Assembly (NCBI GenBank): GCA_049647085.1
Contig: JBARXA010000006.1
Location: 2,670 to 66,669 of the forward strand
Length of the DNA stretch: 64,000 nt
Origin: Candidatus Humimicrobiia bacterium
GTDB lineage: Bacteria; Actinomycetota; Humimicrobiia; JAHJRV01
Reading direction: 5' to 3'
The translations under genes and the position numbers were made by a program. Every line of letters begins with the position of its first letter. The first letter of the stretch is position 1. The notes under the pieces were generated by a model, which did not search any database, had not been told where the DNA came from, and saw only the letters and a list, made by a program, of their open reading frames with translations. Below are positions 2,550 through 38,222 of the stretch, piece after piece.

Positions 2550-2963
2550 ATGAAAACAGCAGTTATTTACAAAAGTTTTTTAGGTACGACAGAAAAATAT
2601 GCCAAATGGTTAAGTGAAGAAATTGATGCAGCTTTATTTAGATTTGGTCAAATAAAAAGAGATCAATTTGATAATTATGATATCTTAATTATCTCTTCAG
2701 GAACTTATGCTAGTTGGATGCCTCTAACAGGATATTTAAAAAGGATTTGGCAATATATAAAAAACAAGAAGGTAGTTGTTGTAGCTATTGGAGCAGCACC
2801 AGAGGATGATGAATGGAGTAAAAAATCATATAAAAGAATATCAATTGACATTAGGTCTAAAATCAAATATTTTAAAATTCCAGGAAAACTTGGTAAACAA
2901 ACCGGTAAAGATATTAAAAAAGAAAATTTAGAGCCAATTATCAAATATATTAGAAGTTTATAA
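2550..2963 (+). CDS. flavodoxin-like protein
   Basis: 137 aa, MKTAVIYKSFLGTTEKYAKWL N-terminus and a Gly-rich FMN loop-like pattern. Confidence 0.4.
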   Translation: MKTAVIYKSFLGTTEKYAKWLSEEIDAALFRFGQIKRDQFDNYDILIISSGTYASWMPLTGYLKRIWQYIKNKKVVVVAIGAAPEDDEWSKKSYKRISIDIRSKIKYFKIPGKLGKQTGKDIKKENLEPIIKYIRSL

Positions 2964-3332
2964 AATGATTAATTCGTCAATCATTGAGTTTCAAATGTGA
3001 AGTTCTGGTTAACCATTCTAAAGATTCAATTAATATTAAGACGATTAGTAAAGCCAATGTTGACAAAAAAAGGTAATGAAATTGCAATATCTCATCAAAA
3101 GCGAAAGATGGAGATAGTTAAACAAACATTAAAACCACTATCACCAAAAGACCAGTAAAGTCTTATTCTAATCTTAGAAAAACTCTCAAATAAAATAAGA
3201 TAAAAGTATGAGTAATAAATACCAAAAAATTAAAAATATAAATAATGTTTCTTATTAATATTATTTTTAAAAGAGTAAAAATAAAAAGATGGGGGAAATT
3301 TACAATATTCTAAGAAGAGACAAAGACTTTAA

Positions 3333-4283
3333 ATGAAACAAAATAATAAAGAGAGATTCAATATTTTAAGGAAAGAAATGGATACACTAACTGCAATTAA
3401 AAAGCGTATAAGTGTACGTAGTTATAGTGGGAATATTGTAGATTCAGCCAAAATTGAGCAACTGATTAATTTTGCAAAAAGTACCAAACATTTAACAATA
3501 GTGCCACCGCGAATAGAACTGGTAAACGGTGTTGATAAGACAAATCACATTTTAACTTCAATAATTGGCTCATATGGTCTGGTGAGAAATCCACCCTACT
3601 TACTAATTGGAATAATGCCTGAAGAAAGTGACATTGCCAGAATTGATCTTGGATATGTGTTAGAACATGTGGTGATAGAAGCCACAAAGTTAGGGTTAAG
3701 CACTTGTTGGATAAGTGGTTCTTATGACCCTAAAATTGCTAGTGATGAAGTGAATTTAAAATCTGGGGAGATAGTAGAAGTAGTATGTGCTCTTGGTTAT
3801 CCAGCTGAGGAAATGTTAGAAAGTGTTCACAGCAAAATTGTGCGCAGGATGGCAGGTGGACATAGGCGAAAACAACTAAATGAAATAGTGTTTTCTAAGC
3901 GATGGGGGAAGGTCTGGAAGCCAGAGGAGGTAGATCAAACACTGATTACCATACTCGAACACGCTCGTTTGGCTCCATCAGGTTATAATCGACAGCCATG
4001 GCGTTTCATTATTAGACCGGGGAATATTGTTCTTACTCTAGTATTAACAAAGCCCTTAGGGACTGGTATTGCAAATAGACTATCTTCAATTGTTGGTGTT
4101 GTGAAAAGAAATGTACTTGCAAAAGCGCAATACATTGATGCTGGAATTGTGATGTCACACTTCACATTAGTATCTGAAGCAATTGGACAAAAAGGTCAGT
4201 GGGAATTGCGGTTGGGAGATAAAATCTTAGCTCGAGAATGTCAATTACTCAAAGGAGTCATCCCTGTAGCCATTTTTAAGTAA
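3333..4283 (+). CDS. nitroreductase-family protein (two nitroreductase-like halves)
   Basis: RISVRSY and APSGYNRQPWRFII motifs. Moderately GC-enriched relative to neighbours. Confidence 0.5.
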   Translation: MKQNNKERFNILRKEMDTLTAIKKRISVRSYSGNIVDSAKIEQLINFAKSTKHLTIVPPRIELVNGVDKTNHILTSIIGSYGLVRNPPYLLIGIMPEESDIARIDLGYVLEHVVIEATKLGLSTCWISGSYDPKIASDEVNLKSGEIVEVVCALGYPAEEMLESVHSKIVRRMAGGHRRKQLNEIVFSKRWGKVWKPEEVDQTLITILEHARLAPSGYNRQPWRFIIRPGNIVLTLVLTKPLGTGIANRLSSIVGVVKRNVLAKAQYIDAGIVMSHFTLVSEAIGQKGQWELRLGDKILARECQLLKGVIPVAIFK

Positions 4284-4380
4284 AAATCTTAATAACTTTG
4301 TGGGGATTTTTGTTAGCAATCCCTTCAGTATTTGCTTATTGGTATTTCGGATTTAAAAAGAGAGAAAGGCAAAGCTAATT

Positions 4381-4578
4381 ATGGCAAAGCAAGGATTTCA
4401 TAAATGGGCTTGGCTAATCATATTACTATTAGGTGGGTTGTTAATGCTCTATGGTGGAGCACAGGATGTTCTACTTTTCTTTGCACCTGATATGGTACCA
4501 GTACCATCTTGGTACTCAGTAACACCTGTTGTAGGACTGGTATATGGACTGATAGTGTTTTTTTCAGCGCAGGCTTGA
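4381..4578 (+). CDS. small membrane protein
   Basis: 65 aa with two hydrophobic segments. Confidence 0.3.
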   Translation: MAKQGFHKWAWLIILLLGGLLMLYGGAQDVLLFFAPDMVPVPSWYSVTPVVGLVYGLIVFFSAQA

Positions 4579-4667
4579 ATTTATTTTTGGGATTGCAACT
4601 ACACCATGCTATAGGTATCCAGGAGAAAAGGTTAGCGTCTTTAGTAGCTCAATAGATCTTCAATTAT

Positions 4668-5912
4668 TTATTGAGTAGGATCAAAAACTCTTCCCATAAA
4701 TAGAACATTACCAGTTTCTCTTTCTTGTATCATAAATATAAATGGGTGATCTGCATTAAAAACAGTTTTTTCAGAAATAGCTTCTTTCATAACTACAGCA
4801 GTTGCAGCTGCAGCTTCAGTTCCTTCTTCATTAACCTCAACAAAAGCTTGGTGAATTACATTACTAATGAAAAGAGTTTTTGTACCATTCATTCCTGAGA
4901 AATCTGCACCACCAAAAGCAGATGGCATTCCCATTTCAATTAATGTCTCTTTCATAAAATATTTAGTTTCAAATTTAAATTTAGGTATATAAACATCAAC
5001 TTCTTGTTTTGTTAGAGCATTTCTTAATTCATTAAGTTTTTCCAAACTGAGTAAATCTTCTACTGATTTTAAATTATCTTCTTTTGGAAGAATAATTAAC
5101 ATTGACAATTCTTCTCCATCATATGGCATCTCAAGAACCCGAAGCTCTTCGGTTTCAGCATAGTTAAATTCTTCATCAGTTAAACTCATCATATCAACTT
5201 TAACTGTTTTTTCGGAACTTACTTTAAAATCTTCTTCTCTAGTATCTTCTTTATTAAATTGAAGCAACCATGTTCCTTTAAAATATATTGCATTGGTGAG
5301 AACTAAGCGTGTATCTGGGTCAAGAACACCTTGTGGTATTAAGTCTTTTATTTTATTGTTTGTCCTTTCTTCTACCCAGCTGTTAATTGTTTTTCTTGAC
5401 TTTTCAGTTTCATTTACAAAATCTAAATTTGTAGCTTTTCCAGCATAATATTTTTCTACTACATCTAAATATTCATCTAAAAAAAGATAATCTATTTGTG
5501 TCCACAGTGCATTTGCTGTATGTAGTTTATATTTCTTATCTTTTTTATTTATCTGATTGTAAATTCTTGCAAAAGAGTATCTGCGAATATCATCATCTTG
5601 GGGTAAATAAAAAACAGACCTCATCTCTTCCGCTGTTTTTCCTCTTGCTCCTTCATAAGTCATTGCCAGTGCTGTAGAGATACTGTATGGAGAGAAAAAG
5701 ATATTGTCCTCACTATATTCCGGGGTATCTTTAAATTTTAAATACAAATCTAATGCAAATTGATTATTAGCATCTACAACAATACCAACCCCTTCATTGG
5801 TTGCTTTGCTATCAGCTGCTGTTGGTATTATTTCTTCTGGATTCTCCGGTGCTTTAACACAACCATTAATTAGAATAATTACTAAAAATAATAATAATAA
5901 AATGTGTTTCAT
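4668..5912 (-). CDS. serpin (serine protease inhibitor), lipoprotein
   Basis: 414 aa. Signal peptide with an LINGC lipobox. C-terminal serpin signature ...FNADHPFIFMIQERETGNVLFMGRV. Confidence 0.85.
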   Translation of the reverse strand: MKHILLLLFLVIILINGCVKAPENPEEIIPTAADSKATNEGVGIVVDANNQFALDLYLKFKDTPEYSEDNIFFSPYSISTALAMTYEGARGKTAEEMRSVFYLPQDDDIRRYSFARIYNQINKKDKKYKLHTANALWTQIDYLFLDEYLDVVEKYYAGKATNLDFVNETEKSRKTINSWVEERTNNKIKDLIPQGVLDPDTRLVLTNAIYFKGTWLLQFNKEDTREEDFKVSSEKTVKVDMMSLTDEEFNYAETEELRVLEMPYDGEELSMLIILPKEDNLKSVEDLLSLEKLNELRNALTKQEVDVYIPKFKFETKYFMKETLIEMGMPSAFGGADFSGMNGTKTLFISNVIHQAFVEVNEEGTEAAAATAVVMKEAISEKTVFNADHPFIFMIQERETGNVLFMGRVFDPTQ

Positions 5913-6109
5913 TTCCCCCTCACTTTAAAATAAAATATTTCATTGCAATTAGACATAGAAATTGTTAAAAATGTTCCGTATTCATTTCTATTAAAAAAGA
6001 TGATGACTAATATGATAACGAATATTTAATAAAGTAATAAAAAATCCTCAGTATAAAATTTGACATAAGCCACTCTTTTTATTACAATGTAATACAGGAG
6101 GTGTTGTAG

Positions 6110-22024: not shown

Positions 22025-22249
22025 ATGGGCATCAATATTTTTCCAATTCGTCTGTGGGTTGACCATTGCTATATAATCCAGGACAAAGGGGTGATTATGA
22101 TTGATTGTGGGTCACCCAAGAAAGCAAAAGCCTTTAAAAAAGCCATTGAAAGAATCCATATTAAACCTGATGAAATTCAGCTAATCGTTATAACACATGG
22201 GCATATGGATCATATAAGATCAGCTAATGACATCAAAGGGTTGACGTAG
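22025..22249 (+). pseudogene. MBL-fold metallo-hydrolase, truncated after 74 codons at a repeat boundary
   Basis: HGHMDH (HxHxDH) motif then stop. The TAG stop is the first bases of the family-2 repeat GTAGAAATAATTGACC. Confidence 0.55.
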
Positions 22250-28194: not shown

Positions 28195-29424
28195 ATGGAA
28201 AATAAAAATGCAATAGAATTGATTGAGATAAAAGGTCATATCATTGACTCTTTAATTTTACCCCAGATATTTGATGAAATTGTAGAAGCTGGTGGTGAGT
28301 TTGAAGTAGTGGAATTTGTAATAGGAAAAACAAACATTGATGAAAGTCTGGCTAAAATAAAAATTTCCGCAATTTCTCATGAAGTTTTAGACATAATTTT
28401 ATATAGATTACAAAGATTAGGAGTAGTTCCAGTTAAGGTAAAGAATGCATCTACGGCTCCAGCTCCAAAGGATGGAATTTTGCCTGATGATTTTTACTCA
28501 ACTACAAACATTGCCACTAAAATTAGAATCTCTAGAAACTGGATAGATGTTCAAAATCAGGAGATGGATTGTGCAGTGGTAATTAATAAAAACCAAATCC
28601 CTGAATGTGTTCGTATGTCTAAAGTTAAGAAAGGAGATCATATAGTAATTGGTAGAAATGGGATAAGGGTAATGCCCACCGAGAGACCGAGAGAGGGCAC
28701 TTTTTTCGAATTTATGACATCCTCTGTATCCAGTGAGAAGCCTAAGAGGTTATTAATAAAAGAGATAGCAAAAAGAATGAGATTAATAAAGGAAAGTGAT
28801 GGCAAGATACTGTTTGTTTGTGGACCTGCAGTAGTTCATACTGGTGCTAAGAAATATTTAGTTAGATTAATTAACAATGGATATATAGATGTTCTATTTT
28901 CTGGAAATGCATTAGCAGTTCATGATTTAGAGTCAGAAATTTTTGGAACATCATTAGGCATAAGCTTGAAAAGTGGAGCTGTTACTGATGAAGGTCATGG
29001 TAATCATTTAAGAGCAATAAATATCATAAAAAATTATGGATCAATTAAAAATGCTATAGATGCTGGTGTAATAAAAGATGGGATAATGCATGCTCTTATA
29101 AAAAATAAAAAGGAATATGTTTTAGCTGGTTCAATAAGGGATGATGGACCCTTGCCAGAAGTTATAACAGATGTAGTGGAGGCTCAGGATGCAATGAGGA
29201 GTAAATTAAAAGATATCAAAATGGCTTTGATGTTAGCCACAATGCTTCACTCAATAGCAGTTGGAAATCTATTACCAGCAACAGTTGAGACCTATTGTAT
29301 AGATATAAATCCAGCTGTTGTTACTAAATTAACTGATAGGGGAAGCTTTCAAACAAGGGGTATGGTAACAGATATAGGTCTATTCTTAAGAGATTTAACA
29401 AATGAATTAATTAATGTTTGGTAA
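28195..29424 (+). CDS. conserved hypothetical protein, LOR/SDH-like (TIGR00300-type) family
   Basis: 409 aa. GSIRDDGPLP and CGPAVVHTGA segments resemble the LOR/SDH conserved region. Assignment is from memory only. Confidence 0.35.
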   Translation: MENKNAIELIEIKGHIIDSLILPQIFDEIVEAGGEFEVVEFVIGKTNIDESLAKIKISAISHEVLDIILYRLQRLGVVPVKVKNASTAPAPKDGILPDDFYSTTNIATKIRISRNWIDVQNQEMDCAVVINKNQIPECVRMSKVKKGDHIVIGRNGIRVMPTERPREGTFFEFMTSSVSSEKPKRLLIKEIAKRMRLIKESDGKILFVCGPAVVHTGAKKYLVRLINNGYIDVLFSGNALAVHDLESEIFGTSLGISLKSGAVTDEGHGNHLRAINIIKNYGSIKNAIDAGVIKDGIMHALIKNKKEYVLAGSIRDDGPLPEVITDVVEAQDAMRSKLKDIKMALMLATMLHSIAVGNLLPATVETYCIDINPAVVTKLTDRGSFQTRGMVTDIGLFLRDLTNELINVW

Positions 29425-29626: not shown

Positions 29627-30214
29627 ATGAAGTACTTAAAACTTAGAAGACTAAAGAAAAACCTATATTTTACAGTTGAAGATGTAGCAAGTGTTTTAAA
29701 CATAAAACAATCTTCAGCACGTGTAATGTGCAGCCGCTATGCAAAAAACGGTTTTTTTATAAGATTAAAGAATAATTTTTATGTACTGTCTGAAAATTGG
29801 GATAAATTTTCCCGAGAAGATTTTTTAAGAATTTCAAATTATATTCAGGTTCCTTCTTATATCTCTTACATGACAGCTCTTATGAAATATGGTGTTACAA
29901 CGCAGGTGCAGCAGAATTTCTTTGAGTCTTGTTCTTTAAAGAGAACAAAGGTATTCGATGTCGGAGGAATAGAGTTTAGATATTATAAGATTAAGAAAGA
30001 TTATTATTTTGGATTTGAAAGAAAAAACAATATATTTTTAGCCACAAAAGAAAAAGCATTTATTGATACTACATATCTTTATTCTTTTGGAAAATACAGA
30101 ATTGATTTCAGTTCTCTCGATCTTAATAAATTAGATAAAGAAAAAATTATAGAAATCATTAATATATTTCCAGCAAAGACGAAAAAATTGGTGGGGAAAT
30201 TATGCGAGATCTAA
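29627..30214 (+). CDS. abiEi: AbiEi-family antitoxin / transcriptional regulator
   Basis: N-terminal wHTH (FTVEDVASVLNIKQSSARVMCSRYAKNGFFIRL). The gene overlaps the downstream AbiEii start. Confidence 0.65.
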   Translation: MKYLKLRRLKKNLYFTVEDVASVLNIKQSSARVMCSRYAKNGFFIRLKNNFYVLSENWDKFSREDFLRISNYIQVPSYISYMTALMKYGVTTQVQQNFFESCSLKRTKVFDVGGIEFRYYKIKKDYYFGFERKNNIFLATKEKAFIDTTYLYSFGKYRIDFSSLDLNKLDKEKIIEIINIFPAKTKKLVGKLCEI

Positions 30215-30873
30215 TTGAACAAGAAAAGTTTGAATTGGGCGTTTTAGACAGGTTAAATAGCAAGAGAATTCTTGAAAAACTTATATTTGTAGACGGAACC
30301 ATGTTACGGTTATGTCATGGACTTAACAGATTTTCAATTGATATAGATTTTTGGCTAACAAAAAAAGTTAATAAAAATAAATTATTTATAGAAATAAATA
30401 AATATTTTTCTCAGTTCTATAAGATAAGTGACAGTGCCAATAAATTGAATACACTACTTTTTGAATTTAAGTCTTCTAAATACCCAATGAACTTAAAATT
30501 AGAGATAAGAAAGGAGATCAAAAATATTGAAACTGAGCAGGTTATTGCTTATAGCAAATACTCTAATATACAGGTACTTCTAAGAGTTCCAACCCTTGAT
30601 GCAATGATGAGTGAAAAAATTGACGCTTTTCTTGAAAGAAAGGAGATAAGAGATATATTTGATATTGAGTTTTTATATAAAAAGGGAATTGAGCTCAAAG
30701 AATCTCCAGAAAAATTAATAAAAATACTTGATGGAATAAAATTATTTAAGAAAAATGATTATAAAGTAAAACTTGGGTCTTTGCTTGAGAAAGAGCAAAG
30801 GAAGTATTATATTAACGAGAATTTCAAAATCCTTAAAGCAGCTATAAAAGAGAAAAAGTTAGTGATATCTTAG
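30202..30873 (+). CDS. abiEii: AbiEii/AbiGii-family nucleotidyltransferase toxin (DUF1814)
   Basis: GTMLRLCHGLNRFSIDIDF NTase motif. Confidence 0.75.
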   Translation: MRDLIEQEKFELGVLDRLNSKRILEKLIFVDGTMLRLCHGLNRFSIDIDFWLTKKVNKNKLFIEINKYFSQFYKISDSANKLNTLLFEFKSSKYPMNLKLEIRKEIKNIETEQVIAYSKYSNIQVLLRVPTLDAMMSEKIDAFLERKEIRDIFDIEFLYKKGIELKESPEKLIKILDGIKLFKKNDYKVKLGSLLEKEQRKYYINENFKILKAAIKEKKLVIS

Positions 30874-31276
30874 AAAATTATGGAATTAGAGTTCAATATA
30901 GTCTGTTTGAATGTAAATTAAAACTTGATGACCTATTAAAATTAAAATTCTATTTAAAGAATTTAATAAATAAAGAAGAAGACAGAATCCATTTTTACAG
31001 ATTATGTCCAGGATGTTATGGTAAAATTGAGAAGATTGGAACTGACAAACCAATTATAGATAAAGAAACAATAGTGATATAAATAATTCGAGCATTAATG
31101 GTGTGCAAAATTACTGAGAGATGATAGCAAAATTTAAAAAACCTGCAAAAATATATTTTGATATTCTAAAAATGAAAAATTTTAAATCATAAAATATTAA
31201 ATTTAATATAATATTAGAAGACACTCGATTTTTAGGTATAAATGACCTGATAATTAATACAAAAAAGTATGCAGAA

Positions 31277-31314
31277 GTAGAAATAATTGACCTGAAGAAA
31301 AAGGGATTAAAAAG
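31277..31314 (+). repeat. family-2 unit (GTAGAAATAATTGACCTGAAGAAAAAGGGATTAAAAAG)
   Basis: Immediately precedes the GC-rich pfkA leader. Confidence 0.65.
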
Positions 31315-31572
31315 CGACTATCAGTAACCCTGCAATGCCAGAATCTGGGCGGTTTAGAGGGATGATATTCTCATCCTTCAAAGTTTCCTACAAAAACCTT
31401 CCAAATTGTTATCTCGCTCCCGTGATGTCAATGCGCATTTATCTCACTTAGCTCATTTACGGACCATCGGATATTATAATAGCTTTCACTGAAAAGGGGA
31501 ATTCATTCCTTTGTCGTTTTGGTATATAATTCTGGTAATAGGTAATGAACAATAATTAATGAGGACAGTTTT

Positions 31573-32538
31573 ATGAAGCGTATTGGGGTGTTGACCAGTG
31601 GCGGAGATAGCCCTGGGATGAACGCTTGTATAAGGGTGGTAGTGAGGACAGGTATTAGTCTTGAACTGAAGGTCATAGGCATTAAACGTGGCTATACTGG
31701 ACTAATAGATGGGGAGATAGAGCAAATGGGTGCACGCTCCGTGGGCGGCATAATCCAAAGAGCGGGCACCATCTTACAAACAGCGAGATGTGAGGAATTT
31801 AAAACAATACATGGGAGATGCAAGGCGCTGCGAAAGCTAAACGAGTACGGCATCGAGGGATTGGTGGTAATTGGTGGTTGTGGCTCCCTGAAGGGTGCTT
31901 TGGAGCTTCACAAGATGGGCTTTCCTGTAGTTGGCGTGCCAGCCAGCATTGACAACGACATCTGTGGAACCGACATGTCCATCGGCACTGACACAGCCCT
32001 CAACACTGCGCTTGATGCTATTGACAAAATAAAAGAGACCGGCTCCTCGCACGGACGGGCTTTCCTAGTAGAAGTGATGGGGCGGAATTGTGGATATCTT
32101 GCTTTGATGGCTGCGATAGCCGGTGGGGCCGAGGTCGTCCTTATCCCAGAGAAAGAGATTGCTCTGGAGGAGGTTGCTGAGATCTTAGAACAAGCTTACA
32201 TCAAGGGTAAAGCCCACGCTCTCGTCGTCATAGCAGAGGGAGCTAAGTGTAAAACCTCGGAGGTAGTTGCTTACCTTCAGAAAGAGGAGATAGGCTTTGA
32301 GGTGCGCACCACCATACTTGGTCATGTCCAAAGGGGAGGGTCACCGAGTGCATTCGACAGGCTCCTAGCAACACGCTTAGGCGCATCAGCTGTACAGAAG
32401 CTTGCTAAGGGGGTCAGAGGTATGATGGTTGGGTTGATAGGTAACAAAATAAAGACCACAAGCTTGGAGCAGGTAACTGAGCGACGCAAGGAGTTGGACA
32501 TAACCTTATATGATATGGCTGAGGTACTGGCAAAGTAA
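31573..32538 (+). CDS. pfkA: ATP-dependent 6-phosphofructokinase
   Basis: GGDSPGMNA, GGCGSLKGA and MGR motifs. First 100 nt is 50% GC versus about 30% background. Confidence 0.9.
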   Translation: MKRIGVLTSGGDSPGMNACIRVVVRTGISLELKVIGIKRGYTGLIDGEIEQMGARSVGGIIQRAGTILQTARCEEFKTIHGRCKALRKLNEYGIEGLVVIGGCGSLKGALELHKMGFPVVGVPASIDNDICGTDMSIGTDTALNTALDAIDKIKETGSSHGRAFLVEVMGRNCGYLALMAAIAGGAEVVLIPEKEIALEEVAEILEQAYIKGKAHALVVIAEGAKCKTSEVVAYLQKEEIGFEVRTTILGHVQRGGSPSAFDRLLATRLGASAVQKLAKGVRGMMVGLIGNKIKTTSLEQVTERRKELDITLYDMAEVLAK

Positions 32539-32598
32539 AGGAGAGTATCAAGATTACATCCATACCCATGTCATCCTTTTCATGGTCTATCCTCCTTT

Positions 32599-32816
32599 CA
32601 TAGAAATAATTGACCTGAATAAAAAGGGATTTAGAATCACCCTCCCCCTACCCCCTCCCATCAAGGGAGGGGAAGTAGAAATAATTAACCTTAGTAAAAG
32701 ATTCCTCTCCACTTCATCTCTGATTTTTGAGGATGATATTTTTATAAAGATAAGATGCCTATTTATCTTGAAATCTTTACAATAAAAATATAATATTAAA
32801 AAATCAGAAAAAGATT
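32599..32816 (+). repeat. composite: family-2 unit (32599-32636) + perfect G-rich hairpin CCCCTCCC-ATCAA-GGGAGGGG (32641-32675) + degenerate family-2 unit (32675-32705) + ATTAAAAAATCAGAAAAAGATT tail (32795-32816)
   Basis: Two family-2 units separated by about 40 bp, mimicking a repeat-spacer-repeat arrangement. Confidence 0.65.
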
Positions 32817-32859
32817 AAATTACCAAATTAATGAAAAAGTTTATTAAAAGTGGTTTTAA

Positions 32860-33000
32860 ATGAAATGTAAAAATCACCCTGGTAGGAAGGCTATTCATAT
32901 CTGTCAGAAATTTAATTATGGATATTGTGATGATTGCTGTCAGTGTACAATGCCTGATGAATTTTGTCGTTTTCGAGCAAATCATCTCTGTTCAATTTAG
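32860..33000 (+). CDS. small Cys-rich ORF (46 aa, 8 Cys)
   Basis: MKCKNHPGRKAIHICQKFNYGYCDDCCQCTMPDEFCRFRANHLCSI. Weak RBS. Below the ORF-track cutoff. Confidence 0.3.
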   Translation: MKCKNHPGRKAIHICQKFNYGYCDDCCQCTMPDEFCRFRANHLCSI

Positions 33001-33236
33001 GAAATATGTCTACCGGAAAGAAGATATAAAAAAAAGAAAGAAAAGGCAAAAAATAGAATCTTATAATATATAATTAATGTAAAATCTTTAAAGGTGTATT
33101 AAAAATGATGTTATTTAATAATAAATGTATAGCATTTTTATAGAAGGGGGTGATTTACAAAAAATAAAAAAAAGTTTAAATTTAAAAGGATGTTTAAAAG
33201 GATGTTTTTGATTGAAGAAAGAAGGTGAGATTAAGA

Positions 33237-34385
33237 ATGATAGAAAAGGTAGCTATAGTTGGCGTAGGTTGTACAAACTTCAGGTCAACCACACCAGATC
33301 TATCTTATCGAGAGTTGACTTATGAAGCAGCCACAAAAGCTTATAAGGAAGCAGGAGTTGAGCCAAAAGATATAGATAGTTTTGTGAGTACAGCAGAAGA
33401 TTTCTTTGAGGGATATTCTATTGCTGATGAATACTGTCCAGATCAATTGGGAGCAGTCTTAAAACCAGTTAATACTATAGCCGGAGATTTTTTACAATCA
33501 CTAATTACTGCCTATATGCAAATACTCACTGGAAGACTTAATATTGTTGCTGTTCAAGCAATGAGTAAAGCTTCTAACATGACCACATTAAAAGAATTAG
33601 AATTATTTGCCTTTGATCCAGTTTTTAATCGCCCATTAGCAGAAAATCCACATTTTGTTGCAGGTCTTGAGATGAACAGATATCTTTATGACACAAAAAT
33701 TACAAGGGAGCAATGTGCAAAGGTTGTAGTTAAAAACAAATTAAATGCTCTAAATAATCCCTATGCAGGACATGGAGCTAAAATAACTGTTGAAGATGTT
33801 TTAAATTCTGAGATGATATCATATCCATTAACCCGTTTAGATATTAGTCCTTCTTCTGATGGAGCAGTAGTAATGGTCTTAGCTTCAGAAGAGACCGCTA
33901 AAAAATTGTCTGATAAGCCAATATGGATTAGAGGAGTTGGTTGGTGCTCAGATACATTCAGTTTAGAAAGTAGAGATTGGGCACAACCAATATCTACAAA
34001 AATAGCTGCTGAGATGGCTTATAAAATGGCTAAGATAAATGATCCAAAGAGAGAAATTGATTTAGTTGAATTAAGCGATCTATTTTCCTATAAGGAGCTT
34101 CAGCACTTGGAAGCTTTAAAGTTCTGCAGTAAAGGTGAAGCAGGTAAAATGGTAGATGATGGGGTAACAGAGATTGGAGGAGAACTTCCAGTGAATCCTT
34201 CAGGGGGAAGTTTAGGAGTTGGTAACCTGTATGAATGCTCAGGTGCTCAAAAAGCATTAGAAATTATTCTTCAGTTAAGAGGAGAAGCAGGAAAAAGGCA
34301 AATAAAAAATGCAAATATTGGCTTGGCACATGCTTGGAGGGGTGTTCCTACCACAACCAGTGTCATTGCCATTTTAAGTAATTAA
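33237..34385 (+). CDS. thiolase-fold protein lacking thiolase catalytic Cys/His (Ltp2/SCP-x-like)
   Basis: N-terminal VAIVGVG...; NPSGG present. The nucleophile position reads AGDF (no Cys) and GHP is replaced by GVGN. No C-terminal CxG. Confidence 0.65.
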   Translation: MIEKVAIVGVGCTNFRSTTPDLSYRELTYEAATKAYKEAGVEPKDIDSFVSTAEDFFEGYSIADEYCPDQLGAVLKPVNTIAGDFLQSLITAYMQILTGRLNIVAVQAMSKASNMTTLKELELFAFDPVFNRPLAENPHFVAGLEMNRYLYDTKITREQCAKVVVKNKLNALNNPYAGHGAKITVEDVLNSEMISYPLTRLDISPSSDGAVVMVLASEETAKKLSDKPIWIRGVGWCSDTFSLESRDWAQPISTKIAAEMAYKMAKINDPKREIDLVELSDLFSYKELQHLEALKFCSKGEAGKMVDDGVTEIGGELPVNPSGGSLGVGNLYECSGAQKALEIILQLRGEAGKRQIKNANIGLAHAWRGVPTTTSVIAILSN

Positions 34386-34483
34386 GGGGAGGAATTGGAT
34401 AATTTTAATGAATTTTATCTTAGATCCTCAAAATAATTGCATATATATTTTAAGTAATTGATGGGAGGTGTAAAAAAGTGGGA

Positions 34484-35641
34484 ATGAGAAGAGTAGCGAT
34501 AGTGGGAGCAGGGATGACAAAGTTTGTCAGAAGAGCTCAAGAAACTGGAAAGGAATTAGCTTACGAAGCTGCTAAAATGGCTTTAGATTCTTGTGAATTA
34601 ACATTAGAAGATGTAGGTTGTGTTTCTTTAGGAACTGCTCCTGATGCATTTGATGGTGTTCATATGAAGGGAGAGTATTTAAGTGATGGTGCTGGTGGAT
34701 GGAGGAAACCAGTTATGAGACCATATGTTGGTGGTGGTACGGGAGTATTCAATGCAATCCATGGATGGTTTCATGTAGCTTCTGGATTATTTGATATTTG
34801 TTTGGTTGTCGCCGAAGAGAAGATGTCAAGTTGTTATCCTCATCCAGCGGGAGCTTTCTTGACCATATTTGACCATACAACAGAACAACCACTAAAACCA
34901 AATCTAATCTGGATATTTGCTCTTGAGATGAGAAGATATATGGAAACTTATGGAATTAGTCATAGAGACATTGCCTTGGTTTCAGTGAAGAATAAAAAGA
35001 ATGCAATGGACCATCCTTGCGCACAGATACCACAAGAGATAACTGTAGATGATGTTCTAAACTCAGAAGTATTGGCTGATCCAGTACATAGGTTAGATAT
35101 TAGCCCAACAAGTGATGGAGCAGCAGCTTTAGTACTTGTAGCAGAACATATAGCTAAAAAAATAACAGATAAACCTGTCTGGATAGACGGTGTTGGTTGG
35201 AATGTTGATACAGCTTATTGGGCTACAAGAGACCTTTGTTATCCAAGATATGTTGAGAAGGCTGCAAGAATGGCTTACGATATGGCTGGAATTAAGGAGC
35301 CCCATAAAGAAATTCAAGTAGCTGAACCATATGACCCATTTGATTACAAAGAACTTCACCATATGGAAGGTCTTCTCTTATGCGGTAAAGGAGAAGCCCC
35401 CAGACTTACTGCTGAAGGAGTTACAGCAAGAGATGGTAATATGCCTATATGTCCATCAGGTGGACTATTGGGTGTTGGTAATCCGATAGCTGCATCTGGA
35501 GTAATGAAAATTTGTGAGATCTTCTGGCAACTAAGAGGAGAAGCAGGAAAAAGACAGGTTCCAGGAAAGCCAAAAGTAGGCCTCGCTCAGGCCTGGGGAG
35601 ACCTAATGCAAGTCGGAACCGTCATAGTAATGAAGGTATAA
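34484..35641 (+). CDS. thiolase-fold protein (paralog), also lacking the catalytic Cys/His
   Basis: VAIVGAGMTKF...; CPSGG; GVGNPIAASG instead of GHPxGATG. Confidence 0.65.
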   Translation: MRRVAIVGAGMTKFVRRAQETGKELAYEAAKMALDSCELTLEDVGCVSLGTAPDAFDGVHMKGEYLSDGAGGWRKPVMRPYVGGGTGVFNAIHGWFHVASGLFDICLVVAEEKMSSCYPHPAGAFLTIFDHTTEQPLKPNLIWIFALEMRRYMETYGISHRDIALVSVKNKKNAMDHPCAQIPQEITVDDVLNSEVLADPVHRLDISPTSDGAAALVLVAEHIAKKITDKPVWIDGVGWNVDTAYWATRDLCYPRYVEKAARMAYDMAGIKEPHKEIQVAEPYDPFDYKELHHMEGLLLCGKGEAPRLTAEGVTARDGNMPICPSGGLLGVGNPIAASGVMKICEIFWQLRGEAGKRQVPGKPKVGLAQAWGDLMQVGTVIVMKV

Positions 35642-35653
35642 GGGGGTATTTAA

Positions 35654-36169
35654 ATGAATAATAAAAAATATGATTTTAAAGGAACACCACTTAGGGGGAG
35701 CGATATAAAGGAGAAGAAAGTTTTAACTACTTCGTGGAAGCCAAATCTTCAATATGCCTGGGATGATGGAGTAGCAATTGGCAGATATTTAAAAGAGTTA
35801 AAAAATGGGAAGATAATTGCTAGAAAATGTAATAAGTGTGAACGAATAATGATTCCTCCAAGGATGTTCTGTGAGTTATGTTTTAGAGCAACGGATGAGT
35901 GGGTATATGTAGAAGATACAGGGAGTATAAACACATTTTCGATAAGTTATGTTCATTGGGATGCAAGAAGGATTAAGGAAGGAGAGAAACCATTTATTCC
36001 AGCAGTAATAGAAATTGATGGAGCTTCTGAAGGAATGGGAATACTCCATGTATTAGGAGAGGTTGATCCAGAAGATGTTAAAAGTGGAATGAGAGTTAAA
36101 GCTGTATGGAAACCTTCAGAAGAACGAACAGGTGCAATAACTGATATTAAATATTTCAAACCTATATAG
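35654..36169 (+). CDS. DUF35 OB-fold / rubredoxin-like Zn-ribbon protein
   Basis: CNKCERIMIPPRMFCELC zinc ribbon followed by an OB-fold region. Confidence 0.8.
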   Translation: MNNKKYDFKGTPLRGSDIKEKKVLTTSWKPNLQYAWDDGVAIGRYLKELKNGKIIARKCNKCERIMIPPRMFCELCFRATDEWVYVEDTGSINTFSISYVHWDARRIKEGEKPFIPAVIEIDGASEGMGILHVLGEVDPEDVKSGMRVKAVWKPSEERTGAITDIKYFKPI

Positions 36170-36183
36170 GAGGTAGAGTTAAT

Positions 36184-36657
36184 ATGGGAATAACTGAGAA
36201 AATTAATAGAAATATTGATATGACTTCTTGGAAAGGAAAAATACCTGTTGATTATATATATACTGCTGGTATTGCTGGAGAGAAATTTTTTAGAGAGATT
36301 AAAGATAATGGAAAAATTGTGGGTACAAAATGTGATAAATGTAATGTTATTTATGTTCCTCCAAAGATATATTGTGAGAGATGTTTTGCCAGGTTAGAAA
36401 ATTACATAGATGTAGGCACTAAAGGAACTGTTCACACTTTTACAATACTTCATAAGAATTTAGATGGTACAAAAAAAGAAGAACCAACAATTATTGCTAT
36501 GGTAAAAATTGATGGGACAGATGGAGGTCTTATTCACTGGTTAGGTGAAATACATCCAAAAGAAGTAAAGATTGGAATGACTGTTGAAGCTATCTTTAAA
36601 GCAAAAGAAGAACGCGAAGGCTCAATACTAGATATAAAATATTTCAAACCAATATAA
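36184..36657 (+). CDS. DUF35 OB-fold / Zn-ribbon protein (paralog)
   Basis: CDKCNVIYVPPKIYCERC. Confidence 0.8.
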   Translation: MGITEKINRNIDMTSWKGKIPVDYIYTAGIAGEKFFREIKDNGKIVGTKCDKCNVIYVPPKIYCERCFARLENYIDVGTKGTVHTFTILHKNLDGTKKEEPTIIAMVKIDGTDGGLIHWLGEIHPKEVKIGMTVEAIFKAKEEREGSILDIKYFKPI

Positions 36658-36676
36658 ATTAATGGCTAATTAGAAT

Positions 36677-37504
36677 ATGATACAAAAGATTTTTCTTGAA
36701 ACATTAAAGATAGTAGGAATAGTTACTGTTTTGATGATAGTTATAGAATGGTTTCAAATAAGATATGAAGAAAAAATAAAGAAAATTCTTACTAAAAATC
36801 CACATAATCAAATAATTGGTTCTTCATTACTTGGTGCAATACCAGGTTGTATAGATGCATTTTTAGTTGTTTCACTTTATTCTCATGGACTTGTAGGTTT
36901 TGGAGCTTTAGTGGCAGTTATGCTTTCTACAGCTGGTGATGAGGCTTTTTTTATGTTGGCAATGGCACCAAAGACTGCACTCCAGATTTTTGCTGTTTGT
37001 GCCACACTTGGAATTATCGGTGGTTTTATAACTGAGAAGATTGCCAGTAAAATAAATCTAAAAAGAGCAGAACCCTGTTATATAGATATACATAAAGAGG
37101 AATTTGATATAAAGCATTTTCTTGAAGAACATGTATATAATCATATTTTAAAAAAGCATATCCCCCAACTATTTTTATGGATTTTCTTTACATTACTAAT
37201 TATTCAATTTTTGATGCAGCGTTTTGATTTAGAAAGTATATTACCTCAAAATAAATTATTGTTAATTCTATTAGCAGCATTAATTGGAATAATTCCGGAA
37301 TCTGGCCCACATCTGGTATTCCTTACGCTATATTCAAGGGGTTTAATTCCATTTTCAGTTCTTCTTGTTTCAACTTTAAGCCAAGATGGACATGGGTTAC
37401 TACCACTTTTATCTTACTCTGTAAAAGATACGATTAAGGTTCAAATATTTACCACACTATTCTCTTTATTAATAGGATTGGTGTTGTATTTAATCGGAGT
37501 TTAA
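36677..37504 (+). CDS. membrane protein with an internal two-fold repeat
   Basis: LGAIPGCIDAFLVVSLYSHGL...STAGDEAFF versus IGIIPESGPHLVFLTLYSRGL...SQDGHGLL. Confidence 0.4.
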   Translation: MIQKIFLETLKIVGIVTVLMIVIEWFQIRYEEKIKKILTKNPHNQIIGSSLLGAIPGCIDAFLVVSLYSHGLVGFGALVAVMLSTAGDEAFFMLAMAPKTALQIFAVCATLGIIGGFITEKIASKINLKRAEPCYIDIHKEEFDIKHFLEEHVYNHILKKHIPQLFLWIFFTLLIIQFLMQRFDLESILPQNKLLLILLAALIGIIPESGPHLVFLTLYSRGLIPFSVLLVSTLSQDGHGLLPLLSYSVKDTIKVQIFTTLFSLLIGLVLYLIGV

Positions 37505-37510
37505 TATAGT

Positions 37511-37535
37511 ACCAGGTCTTGACATAAGACATATG
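37511..37535 (+). repeat. hairpin unit ACCAGGTCTTGACATAAGACATATG (same family as 12850-12904)
   Basis: GTCTT-GACAT-AAGAC palindrome between convergent genes. Confidence 0.55.
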
Positions 37536-37540
37536 CATTT

Positions 37541-38008
37541 TTATTCATTTTCTATATTTAACTCCTCAAGTAATCCTAATTCTTCTAAAATATCTAATGC
37601 TTCCTTGTATTTAGGATATATATCTATTGCTTTTTTTAATTCATCGATTGCTTTATCCATCTTCTTTTCATAAAAAAGTTTAGTAGCATTATTAAAATGT
37701 TCAATTGCTTGCATTATAAAATCATTAGCTTTCTCGATCATTTCTTTAGATACTTTATTATCTGGATCCATTTTTAATACTTCTTTAAGAAGTTTCTTTG
37801 CTTCTCCAAAGTCACCTTCTTCATATAGTTTAATTGCTTCATCCAGAATCTCTTTCCACTGAGGAGTCTCCTCCTCGGTCTTTTCCTCAGTCTCTGTTGC
37901 TTCTTTTAAGATGTTAGATTGTTCTTTTTTAGAACAACTTATAGAGAATAAAAATGAAACTAAAAATAAAATTAAAATACAAACATCTAATATCTTTCTG
38001 AATTTCAA
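37541..38008 (-). CDS. TPR-like lipoprotein
   Basis: Signal peptide with SISCS lipobox, then a helical repeat region. Confidence 0.5.
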   Translation of the reverse strand: MKFRKILDVCILILFLVSFLFSISCSKKEQSNILKEATETEEKTEEETPQWKEILDEAIKLYEEGDFGEAKKLLKEVLKMDPDNKVSKEMIEKANDFIMQAIEHFNNATKLFYEKKMDKAIDELKKAIDIYPKYKEALDILEELGLLEELNIENE

Positions 38009-38222
38009 TTTATGCTACCTCCAAAAATTATTTAAGTATAAAGATGCTACCCAAATAAATAAATTAAAAACTATCGTAAATTGTCGTTATATAGTACCCC
38101 TTTTGAGCATTTAGTTACATAAAGTTTTAGTAACTGTAAATAGTATAAGGAAATATAACTATGTTTACAACAATTAAATTTATAAAATAAAAAATTTTTA
38201 AACAAGTTCAATATTTAAATGT

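Follow-up and report, generated by a model that had tools for sequence, protein, structure and literature searches.

A four-gene cassette, A-A'-B-B', was identified in a 64,000-nucleotide stretch of DNA (the window) from Candidatus Humimicrobiia bacterium, taken from contig JBARXA010000006.1 of assembly GCA_049647085.1. The host genome has a GC content of about 31% and belongs to a deep-branching class of Actinomycetota. The cassette encodes two thiolase-fold proteins and two DUF35 proteins and, judged from sequence, constitutes a variant of the thiolase-fold/DUF35 assembly, namely a presumed obligate 2+2 heteromer in which both covalent sites are lost. We propose that A, A', B and B' form one hetero-oligomeric, non-covalently acting complex, most likely an aldol-type lyase working on a short 3-hydroxyacyl-coenzyme A (CoA), a proposal which we rate at slightly less than an even chance. 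The four genes are co-directional and occupy positions 33237-36657 of the window:

33237-34385, + strand, gene A: thiolase-fold protein, putative partner type, 382 aa
34478-35641, + strand, gene A': thiolase-fold protein, likely catalytic subunit, 387 aa
35654-36169, + strand, gene B: DUF35 protein with Cys4 zinc ribbon and OB fold, 171 aa
36184-36657, + strand, gene B': second DUF35 protein with Cys4 zinc ribbon and OB fold, 157 aa

Each gene is preceded by a good Shine-Dalgarno sequence. The ATG of gene A at 33237 lies 7 nt downstream of AAGGTGAG and yields the 382-residue protein, while a 386-residue form results from a GTG further upstream at 33225. The ribosome binding site of gene A', GGGAGGTG, is located 7 nt upstream of the start at 34478; some gene callers choose ATG 34484 instead, giving 385 residues. 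Pfam Thiolase_N and Thiolase_C_1 domains were found in both A and A' (E values of 1e-31 to 1e-36; 9.5e-37 for Thiolase_C_1 in A). B and B' each carry PF12172 (zf-ChsH2) and PF01796 (OB_ChsH2_C), both above the curated cut-offs, and share the zinc-ribbon pattern C-x2-C-x10-C-x2-C that identifies them as DUF35 proteins. The respective cysteines are invariant in 65/65 orthologs of B (C59, C62, C73 and C76) and in 62/62 orthologs of B' (C50, C53, C64 and C67).

Both large subunits have lost the catalytic residues of thiolases. HMMER alignments were made to the solved thiolases of M. thermolithotrophicus (6ESQ) and P. furiosus (7YVY), BbsB (7PXP) and the zebrafish SCP2-thiolase (6HSJ), the last being ungapped over 84 residues. 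Additionally, A and A' were aligned via MAFFT with four canonical bathyarchaeal thiolases which adjoin the same cassette and read ACASS, HDCF, KGHP and HNVGGSG. The two approaches resulted in the same residue registers. At the position of the nucleophilic cysteine, Ala82 is found in A (loop TIAGDF) and Gly86 in A' (loop VGGGTGV). In A, this old nucleophile loop is also shorter by 3 residues and carries an acidic residue, Asp84, that is conserved. In SCP2/archaeal-type thiolases the second catalytic cysteine is located within the HDCF motif (PMC12329534). This loop reads SDLF in A and YDPF in A', putting Leu282 and Pro287 at the acid/base cysteine position. The GHP loop has become GVGN in both proteins with Asn330 and Asn335 in place of the histidine, and the C-terminal loop reads AWRGVP in A and AWGDLMQ in A'. 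No nucleophile-loop cysteine was found in any of 82 A orthologs or 72 A' orthologs. All three features of a competent thiolase (EC 2.3.1.9 / 2.3.1.16: nucleophile cysteine, GHP histidine and acid/base cysteine) are therefore absent from A and A', and at the sequence level neither can be a canonical thiolase.

These results bear on an initial annotation of the locus, whose listed motifs (VAIVGVGCTNF / VAIVGAGMTKF, NPSGG / CPSGG, AGDF, GGGTGV and GVGN) are all present. Its claim that both proteins lack the Cys/His catalysts was borne out by the HMMER and MAFFT alignments, as was its statement that they are not biosynthetic thiolases. A missing C-terminal CxG, to which it also pointed, is not diagnostic because SCP2/archaeal-type thiolases are without CxG too (HNVGGSG), and catalyst loss can not serve as a hallmark of BbsAB-like enzymes since BbsB retains Cys and His (SACSAG, YGHP). 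The tandem A-B / A'-B' order it described has to be corrected to A-A'-B-B'. Many homologs carry the JGI name 'acetyl-CoA C-acetyltransferase', which would fit A and A' being ordinary enzymes of this type and the apparent catalyst loss being an alignment error. We consider this idea barely credible and refuted at the sequence level: HMMER alignments to five solved structures agree with the MAFFT alignment to adjacent canonical paralogs, the nucleophile-loop cysteine is absent from all orthologs as stated above, and NCBI itself names the two families concerned (NF004721 and NF004722) only 'thiolase domain-containing protein'. A relocated nucleophile in A' was also considered, with a C-x-P-H-P motif following EKMS as the candidate, and was ruled out as Cys119 is a cysteine in only 39/72 orthologs. 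Cys39 and Cys108 of A', although nearly invariant, were likewise dismissed as nucleophiles, since the AlphaFold2 (AF2) model places them in a surface helix and a core strand.

The cassette is widespread and strongly conserved. A pattern scan covering one genome per GTDB species returned 523 species with a relative of A, and the loci of the best 80 of these species-level matches were examined. In every locus long enough to show it, the genes occur as A-A'-B-B' in the same order and orientation. The DUF35 genes thus remain obligate companions, as initially annotated, while the arrangement can not be called unusual for an anaerobe given its presence across many anaerobe genomes. The loci belong to Thermodesulfobacteriota (Syntrophaceae, Desulfobacterales), Syntrophorhabdus, Actinomycetota (Humimicrobiia, Geothermincolia), Chloroflexota, Planctomycetota, Bathyarchaeia and Geothermarchaeales; Krumholzibacteria were found in a protein search. 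All cassette genomes are metagenome-assembled genomes (MAGs) from anoxic habitats. Identity to the window proteins among the best 80 loci is 71-81% for A', 58-70% for A, 56-74% for B and 41-65% for B', and mean pairwise distances increase from A' (0.27) via A (0.47) and B (0.52) to B' (0.72), the fastest-evolving subunit.

Conservation within A' is centred on the former active site. Across the 72 A' orthologs, 175 of the 387 positions are conserved to at least 97%, and every loop lining the former active site falls within this set, including G85-G-G-T-G89, E283-P-Y-D-P-F288, L331-G-V-G-N335 and W373-G-D375. Residues Y285, D286, P287, F288, N335 and G85-G89 are invariant. In the 82 A orthologs, position 280 is N/D/S, position 282 is E/T/L/A and position 330 is H/N/Y/C, and the fixed features are the 3-residue deletion, D/E84 and W367-R368-G369-x-P371. 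Because positions that are invariant in A' vary in A, we consider A' to be probably the catalytic subunit and A a degenerate partner. The loss of all canonical catalytic residues in both proteins might instead indicate a non-catalytic scaffold or an acyl-CoA-binding or channelling module, in which both folds are pseudo-enzymes that organise, for example, an acyl-CoA dehydrogenase (ACAD). DUF35 proteins are documented as scaffolds, with DUF35 bridging thiolase and 3-hydroxy-3-methylglutaryl-CoA (HMG-CoA) synthase, and PhlA is a catalytically silent thiolase-fold subunit which together with PhlB serves PhlC. Nevertheless, such a role seems improbable to us as the constraint on A' goes far beyond what scaffolding would need and often no gene for a client enzyme lies near the cassette.

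That the four proteins act as one complex is suggested by natural fusions. Two protein clusters, P0242 (731 aa) and P0255, which are 65% identical to each other, represent A'-B-B' single-chain fusions. In P0242, residues 1-384 form an A' module (62% identical to window A'), residues 401-566 a B module (50% identical to window B) and residues 587-716 a B'-like module (34% identical to window B'). On its own contig, an A-type gene ends 3 nt before the P0242 fusion gene. A and A' are 41% identical, as are B and B' at 42%, and by sequence the cassette would therefore derive from duplication of an ancestral thiolase-like/DUF35 pair. The ancestral thiolase-like copy was probably already Cys-less, since A and A' share GVGN and both are without the cysteine. 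In mirror-tree distances B' co-varies most strongly with A (partial r 0.80), and A'-B and A-B' are possibly the pairs. Sal-Shy(DUF35), Ltp2-ChsH2(DUF35) and BbsAB all consist of thiolase-fold dimers flanked by two DUF35 units. By analogy, a B'-A-A'-B heterotetramer would be the simplest arrangement, and we infer the stoichiometry on this basis.

To place the large subunits within the superfamily, structure and sequence comparisons were combined. An AF2 model of A' built from 105 diverse sequences reached a predicted local distance difference test score (pLDDT) of 95; a run with only 26 close orthologs gave a pLDDT of 52 and was unusable. Foldseek superposed the model best on the archaeal DUF35-partnered thiolases 6ET9/6ESQ (TM-score 0.94), followed by 7YVY, ST0096 (4YZO), SCP2 thiolases, BbsB, PhlC and TbSLP, with Sal (9MYR) ranking 36th and Ltp2 (6OK1) 42nd. 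Sequence bit scores of A' against the PDB follow the same order (7YVY 167, Sal 81, Ltp2 74). According to sequence and model, A and A' sit with the archaeal/SCP2-type thiolases and ST0096 and not with Ltp2 or Sal, although their membership in the SCP2/archaeal subtype is one of fold only (Pfam domains and five-layer thiolase fold). A' matches NCBIfam NF004721/PRK06065 over its full length with 653.6 bits (cut-off 455). A matches NF004722/PRK06066 over its full length with 484.5 bits, just under the cut-off of 516, the next family scoring 343. Scores for other families stay far below their cut-offs: BbsB gave 135-136 bits for A and A' (cut-off 750), BbsA 18.7 bits for B' (cut-off 250) and AcCoTHIOL_METTL (NF053570) 214-215 bits (cut-off 600). 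No HMG-CoA synthase gene was found within the cassette in any locus examined, and no steroid genes near it in the window or in 90 related loci. Based on their sequences, the cassette proteins are not members of the Ltp2, Sal or BbsAB families.

In thiolases, the GHP histidine and the residue at the N/H position of the NEAF/HDCF motif form the oxyanion hole for the thioester enolate. As A' keeps hydrogen-bond donors at these sites (Asn335 and Tyr285) while both cysteines are removed, it would be suited to non-covalent enolate chemistry. Among mechanistic precedents for a thiolase fold that is Cys-less and partnered by DUF35, aldolases of the Ltp2/Sal type come closest. A motif series leads from HDCF in thiolases via YDCF in SLP and YDCY in Sal to YDHF in Ltp2, and the tyrosine is the catalytic base in the aldolases with Cys304 (Sal) or Tyr344 (Ltp2) as the acid (PMC12329534). 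An ungapped alignment of A' residues 280-342 with Ltp2 residues 289-351 (6OK1) places Tyr285 on Tyr294 and Asn335 on Tyr344. Sal Tyr302 also aligns with Tyr285, and both the oxyanion residue His296 of Ltp2 and Sal Cys304 align with the invariant Pro287. The base tyrosine of Ltp2 is thus found in A' only, A having Ser280 (N/D/S in orthologs). Neither the Tyr344 and His296 of Ltp2 nor the complete Tyr302/Cys304 dyad of Sal is present in A', the latter having its tyrosine but a proline for the cysteine. The Ltp2-type aldolase reading of the initial annotation, which had singled out the catalytic tyrosines, consequently holds for the Cys-less DUF35-partnered fold and for one invariant tyrosine of A', and fails for the second catalytic residue and for A, which has no tyrosine at that position. 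A' would work like the Ltp2/Sal aldolases at most in part.

Based on these comparisons, we propose the following mechanism. The core of the complex would be an A/A' heterodimer of thiolase folds flanked on each side by one DUF35 protein (B'-A-A'-B). With the covalent machinery gone from both large subunits, A' would keep a remodelled, invariant active site in which Tyr285 and Asn335 occupy the positions that polarise the thioester carbonyl in thiolases, and Gly86 and Pro287 stand in place of the nucleophile and the acid/base cysteine. The complex would bind an acyl-CoA and perform non-covalent enolate chemistry, most likely by cleaving or forming, in a reversible aldol-type reaction, a C-C bond of a roughly C4-C6 3-hydroxyacyl-CoA with Tyr285 as the base. 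It would act downstream of a butyryl-CoA-dehydrogenase-like ACAD.

Genomic context provides information on possible substrates. One orthologous ACAD adjoins the cassette in 27 loci from Thermodesulfobacteriota, Chloroflexota and Actinomycetota, either directly downstream or divergently upstream. These ACADs are 54-93% identical, and their closest solved relatives are butyryl-CoA dehydrogenases and short-chain acyl-CoA dehydrogenase. In 21 Syntrophaceae-type loci a split B12-dependent acyl-CoA mutase is encoded directly upstream, accompanied by adenosyltransferase, MeaB and two HdrA-like flavoproteins. The cassette-linked mutase reads MRMF and IAQK whereas canonical methylmalonyl-CoA mutase (MCM) copies of the same loci read MRQY and VARG, and its score against the NCBIfam MCM model is 665 bits, under the cut-off of 876. 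We take this pair of exchanges, Tyr to Phe and Arg to Gln, to be the signature of an isobutyryl-CoA mutase (ICM). The recurrent neighbours point to C4-C5 acyl-CoA metabolism.

In the Syntrophaceae/Syntrophorhabdus loci (L009-L033, L048 and L054 in our numbering; e.g. L028 43-6800), the cassette is part of a long co-directional operon, not described before, in which two HdrA-like flavoproteins, cob(I)alamin adenosyltransferase, split ICM-like mutase, A-A'-B-B', ACAD and MeaB follow one another, sometimes with an MmdA-type carboxyltransferase at the end. Three other contextual links were dropped. A link to the methylmalonyl-CoA pathway was rejected as the adjacent mutase has the ICM-like Phe/Gln and not the Tyr/Arg of MCM, and MmdA occurs in only 5 loci. 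FabD, FabG, L32 and YceD upstream of the cassette in a Chloroflexi locus suggested fatty-acid synthesis, with synteny limited to one clade. Aldehyde:ferredoxin oxidoreductase and ketoacyl synthase (KAS) neighbours (L077) are found in only one and two loci.

The same residues and neighbours could be read in favour of other enolate chemistry by the same hetero-complex, such as decarboxylation of malonyl- or methylmalonyl-type CoA esters, enoyl-CoA hydration or isomerisation, or 2-methylacyl-CoA epimerisation. We consider this unlikely, though deserving of serious attention. Tyr285 and Asn335 at enolate-stabilising sites would be usable by any enolate reaction, and the general-acid residues of Ltp2 and Sal are absent from A'. 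For decarboxylation, there is a parallel in TbSLP (YDCF, no nucleophile cysteine), which slowly decarboxylates malonyl-CoA (PMC12329534), with KS-Q domains also cited. Some Syntrophaceae loci add genes for MeaB, methylmalonyl-CoA mutase and MmdA-type carboxyltransferase, but MmdA and MCM neighbours are limited to 5-10 loci from a single clade and the cassette-adjacent mutase shows the ICM-like signature, implying a substrate without carboxylate. Hydration would be attractive as the ACAD product needs a hydratase, which is usually not encoded near the cassette. However, no thiolase-fold hydratase or epimerase is known, and the sister modules described below adjoin dedicated hydratases, indicating that the thiolase-like module acts after hydration.

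Canonical thiolases, crotonase, short-chain dehydrogenase/reductase (SDR) and electron-transferring flavoprotein (ETF) genes adjoin the cassette in some loci. Because canonical Cys-bearing thiolases adjoin it in several of them, the cassette is not just the local thiolase. This also counts against a true Claisen enzyme, be it a thiolase or a condensing enzyme, that operates without acyl-enzyme and in which two CoA esters would meet in a ternary complex across the A/A' interface with the two DUF35 proteins assisting. Such an enzyme would explain gene contexts resembling those of real thiolases (ACAD, SDR/ketoreductase, crotonase, ETF), and having two distinct large subunits and two distinct DUF35 proteins would be in keeping with a pair of unlike substrates; the archaeal DUF35 protein indeed contributes to a shared CoA site (PMC6392133). 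We give it a slim chance, as the thiolase superfamily offers no precedent and no invariant relocated cysteine was found in the 72 A' orthologs. In four Bathyarchaeia loci (L064, L076, L083 and L084), a canonical Cys/His thiolase and DUF35 pair lies divergently and directly upstream of the cassette and is probably the mevalonate-pathway thiolase.

The cassette is part of a wider class of Cys-less modules. An exhaustive HMMER search of 1.84 billion cluster representatives was carried out and the full-length matches within the best 150 were typed by motif. This yielded about 20 A'-type clusters (no Cys, Tyr285, Asn335, Gly-rich loop), about 30 A-type clusters (3-residue deletion plus D/E), 32 canonical Cys+His thiolase clusters and 13 ST0096-like clusters with 'no Cys but His'. 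Within this class, A'-type members can be recognised by a Gly-rich loop together with YDPF and GVGN, and A-type members by the 3-residue deletion and an acidic residue. One locus (L070) encodes a second, paralogous 2+2 cassette at 2780-5973 whose two DUF35 proteins are without zinc-binding cysteines. In another (L093), CoA-transferase, alpha, alpha', DUF35 and crotonase genes follow one another next to a divergent MaoC hydratase, and a third (L095, 3075-9155) contains two alpha/alpha'/DUF35 modules back to back with MaoC hydratase, ACAD, CoA ligase and a BKACE-family gene. Since no hydroxyacyl-CoA dehydrogenase is encoded in these sister gene clusters, their context follows the gene logic of an ACAD-hydratase-aldolase route and not that of beta-oxidation. 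We favour the aldol-type lyase for the cassette because of the tyrosine precedent, the hydratases and ACAD found beside the sister modules, and the ACAD that adjoins the cassette itself.

Several observations weigh against the aldol-type lyase. The general acid of the known aldolases is absent, with Asn335 standing in for Ltp2 Tyr344 and Pro287 for Sal Cys304/Ltp2 His296. A hydratase is rarely adjacent, crotonase being found only in L036, L088 and L070. In the window and numerous further loci, only unrelated genes surround the cassette, and the substrate proposal accordingly draws on a subset of lineages. A has conserved residues of its own (D/E84, R368, S110-K111) and may not be inert, mirror-tree pairing is weak evidence, and all orthologs come from MAGs.

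Comparison with characterized systems reveals precedents for most individual features. Ltp2-ChsH2(DUF35) of Thermomonospora curvata (6OK1) resembles the cassette in its SCP2-type fold, the missing nucleophilic cysteine and its obligate DUF35 partner, and its Tyr294 in Y-D-x-F corresponds to Tyr285 of A'. It is, however, a homodimer, and its DUF35 is supplied as C-terminal domain by the MaoC hydratase ChsH2, whereas the cassette has two large subunits and two free-standing DUF35 proteins, and it works in steroid side-chain cleavage, a gene context the cassette does not have. The bile-acid aldolase Sal-Shy(DUF35) of Comamonas testosteroni (9MYR) shares with A' the glycine at the nucleophile position and a tyrosine base, here in Y-D-C-Y, has the amide Gln352 where A' has Asn335, and forms an alpha-beta-beta-alpha, DUF35-flanked dimer to which the cassette can be likened. 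In contrast to the cassette, Sal is a homodimer with DUF35 from a hydratase fusion, and its essential Cys304 is replaced by Pro287 in A'. The archaeal DUF35-partnered thiolases (6ET9/6ESQ, 7YVY), which are of the SCP2/archaeal subtype and closest to A' in both structure and sequence, keep Cys85, HDCF or HDAF, and GHP, and partner with an HMG-CoA synthase that is not encoded here.

Further relatives share single traits. ST0096 of Sulfolobus tokodaii (4YZO), the best PDB match of A (E 4e-42), has the Cys-less nucleophile loop SGSGG but keeps histidines in HDM and KGHP and, with an identity of only about 30%, falls into the 'no Cys but His' group. TbSLP of Trypanosoma brucei (5AB4-7), for which an aldolase role has been proposed, is similar to A' in its Cys-less nucleophile position and Y-D-C-F motif; it differs in being homomeric, having no DUF35 partner and keeping the HDCF-type cysteine, and is 22-23% identical. 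The benzoylsuccinyl-CoA thiolase BbsAB (7PXP) likewise combines thiolase-fold and DUF35 subunits in a heterotetramer, with BbsB keeping Cys and His unlike A and A'. The Friedel-Crafts acylase PhlABC and MucABC also contain two thiolase-superfamily subunits plus DUF35 with one large subunit being silent, yet that subunit is HMG-CoA synthase/KAS III-like and not paralogous to its active counterpart, DUF35 is of a single type, and the PhlC active site uses Cys88. Atf1 of Mycolicibacterium neoaurum is described as an aldolase with a free-standing 138-aa DUF35 protein, ChsH4 (PMC10398937), and Ltp3/Ltp4 of Rhodococcus and mycobacteria as aldol-lyases whose thiolase-like genes adjoin each other and are both required for sterol side chains branched at C24 (PMC6273163). 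Atf1-ChsH4 and Ltp3/Ltp4 belong to aerobic actinobacterial steroid catabolism and are possible precedents for parts of the cassette architecture.

Fold, partner domain and likely reaction class of the cassette all have precedents. Literature searches around thiolase/DUF35 systems found no paper on an A-A'-B-B' cassette, and the thiolase-fold/DUF35 assemblies known to us (thiolases, aldolases and acyl-transferases) are only homodimeric or contain one DUF35 type. The most far-reaching interpretation, to which we assign a low probability, is that the cassette represents an unrecognised, widespread Cys-independent C-C lyase/synthase of anaerobic short-chain acyl-CoA metabolism. If true, its reaction might for example be the reversible conversion of 3-hydroxybutyryl-CoA, or of a branched C5 3-hydroxyacyl-CoA, into acetyl- or propionyl-CoA and an aldehyde or ketone. 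Uncultured Desulfobacterota, Chloroflexota, deep-branching Actinomycetota and Bathyarchaeia would thereby have a way to elongate or break down chains with neither thiolase nor dehydrogenase, and A-type and A'-type subunits would be the building blocks of a large and diversified class of heteromeric enzymes. With A' sharing about 80% identity across phyla and domains, the cassette ranks with the most strongly conserved gene sets observed in these uncultured anaerobes. Since databases label it 'acetyl-CoA acetyltransferase' or leave it unnamed, it is probably miscounted as a thiolase when the metabolism of Bathyarchaeia, Dehalococcoidia, Syntrophaceae and others is reconstructed. Knowing its reaction would correct such metabolic models and could bring to light a new enzyme of C-C bond chemistry for biocatalysis.

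Within the window, the neighbours of the cassette show no tie to acyl-CoA metabolism: a phosphofructokinase gene (pfk) and an AbiE toxin-antitoxin pair lie upstream and an ArsP-like permease downstream. An Rfam scan of 30800-38200 returned nothing relevant to the cassette, and promoter and terminator scans gave no more signals than expected from shuffled sequence. An exact tandem repeat of TTTAAAAGGATG (x2.2) at 33181-33207, approximately 30 nt upstream of the gene A ribosome binding site, could be an operator or promoter element. The A-A' spacer (34386-34477) measures 92 nt in the window versus 5-20 nt in most other genomes and holds a second, nearly identical copy of the junction sequence (TTTAAGTAATTAAGGGGAGG ... 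TTTTAAGTAATTGATGGGAGG), pointing to a small duplication of the stop/ribosome binding site region at this spot. Between pfk and gene A, at 32860-33000, a small Cys-rich open reading frame (ORF; MKCKNHPGRKAIHICQKFNYGYCDDCCQCTMPDEFCRFRANHLCSI) may encode a zinc-finger or B-box-like peptide.

The downstream gene encodes an ArsP_2/arsenic-efflux-like permease with 10 transmembrane segments (36677-37504; Pfam 1e-43; NCBIfam NF037962, 155 bits). The gene starts 20 nt past the stop codon of B', with no evident Shine-Dalgarno sequence in front, and occupies this place only in the closest relatives (L086), not in other phyla. On the upstream side, positions 28195-29424 and 29627-30873 hold a nickel-pincer-nucleotide-dependent ornithine cyclodeaminase (TIGR00300, 524 bits) and, after it, the AbiEi/AbiEii-type toxin-antitoxin pair, AbiEii having been identified by Pfam in the near-identical locus L086.

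A dispersed element of about 37 nt, GTAGAAATAATTGACCTGAAGAAAAAGGGATTAAAAAG, is located at 31277-31314 and resembles a CRISPR (clustered regularly interspaced short palindromic repeats) direct repeat, scoring 27 bits against Rfam CRISPR-DR32, for which the gathering score is 48. With up to 3 mismatches, 6 copies of its 17-nt core, compared with 0.72 expected, are found on the + strand at 22249, 23945, 29473, 31280, 32603 and 32678, two of them within the spacer between pfk and gene A. Since these copies are irregularly spaced and kilobases apart, they do not constitute a CRISPR array. Close to the solo CRISPR-like repeat, a short ORF remnant at about 30960-31080, ending in ...RIHFYRLCPGCYGKIEKIG..., resembles the C-terminal part of Cas2, and remnant and repeat together may represent a decayed CRISPR locus.

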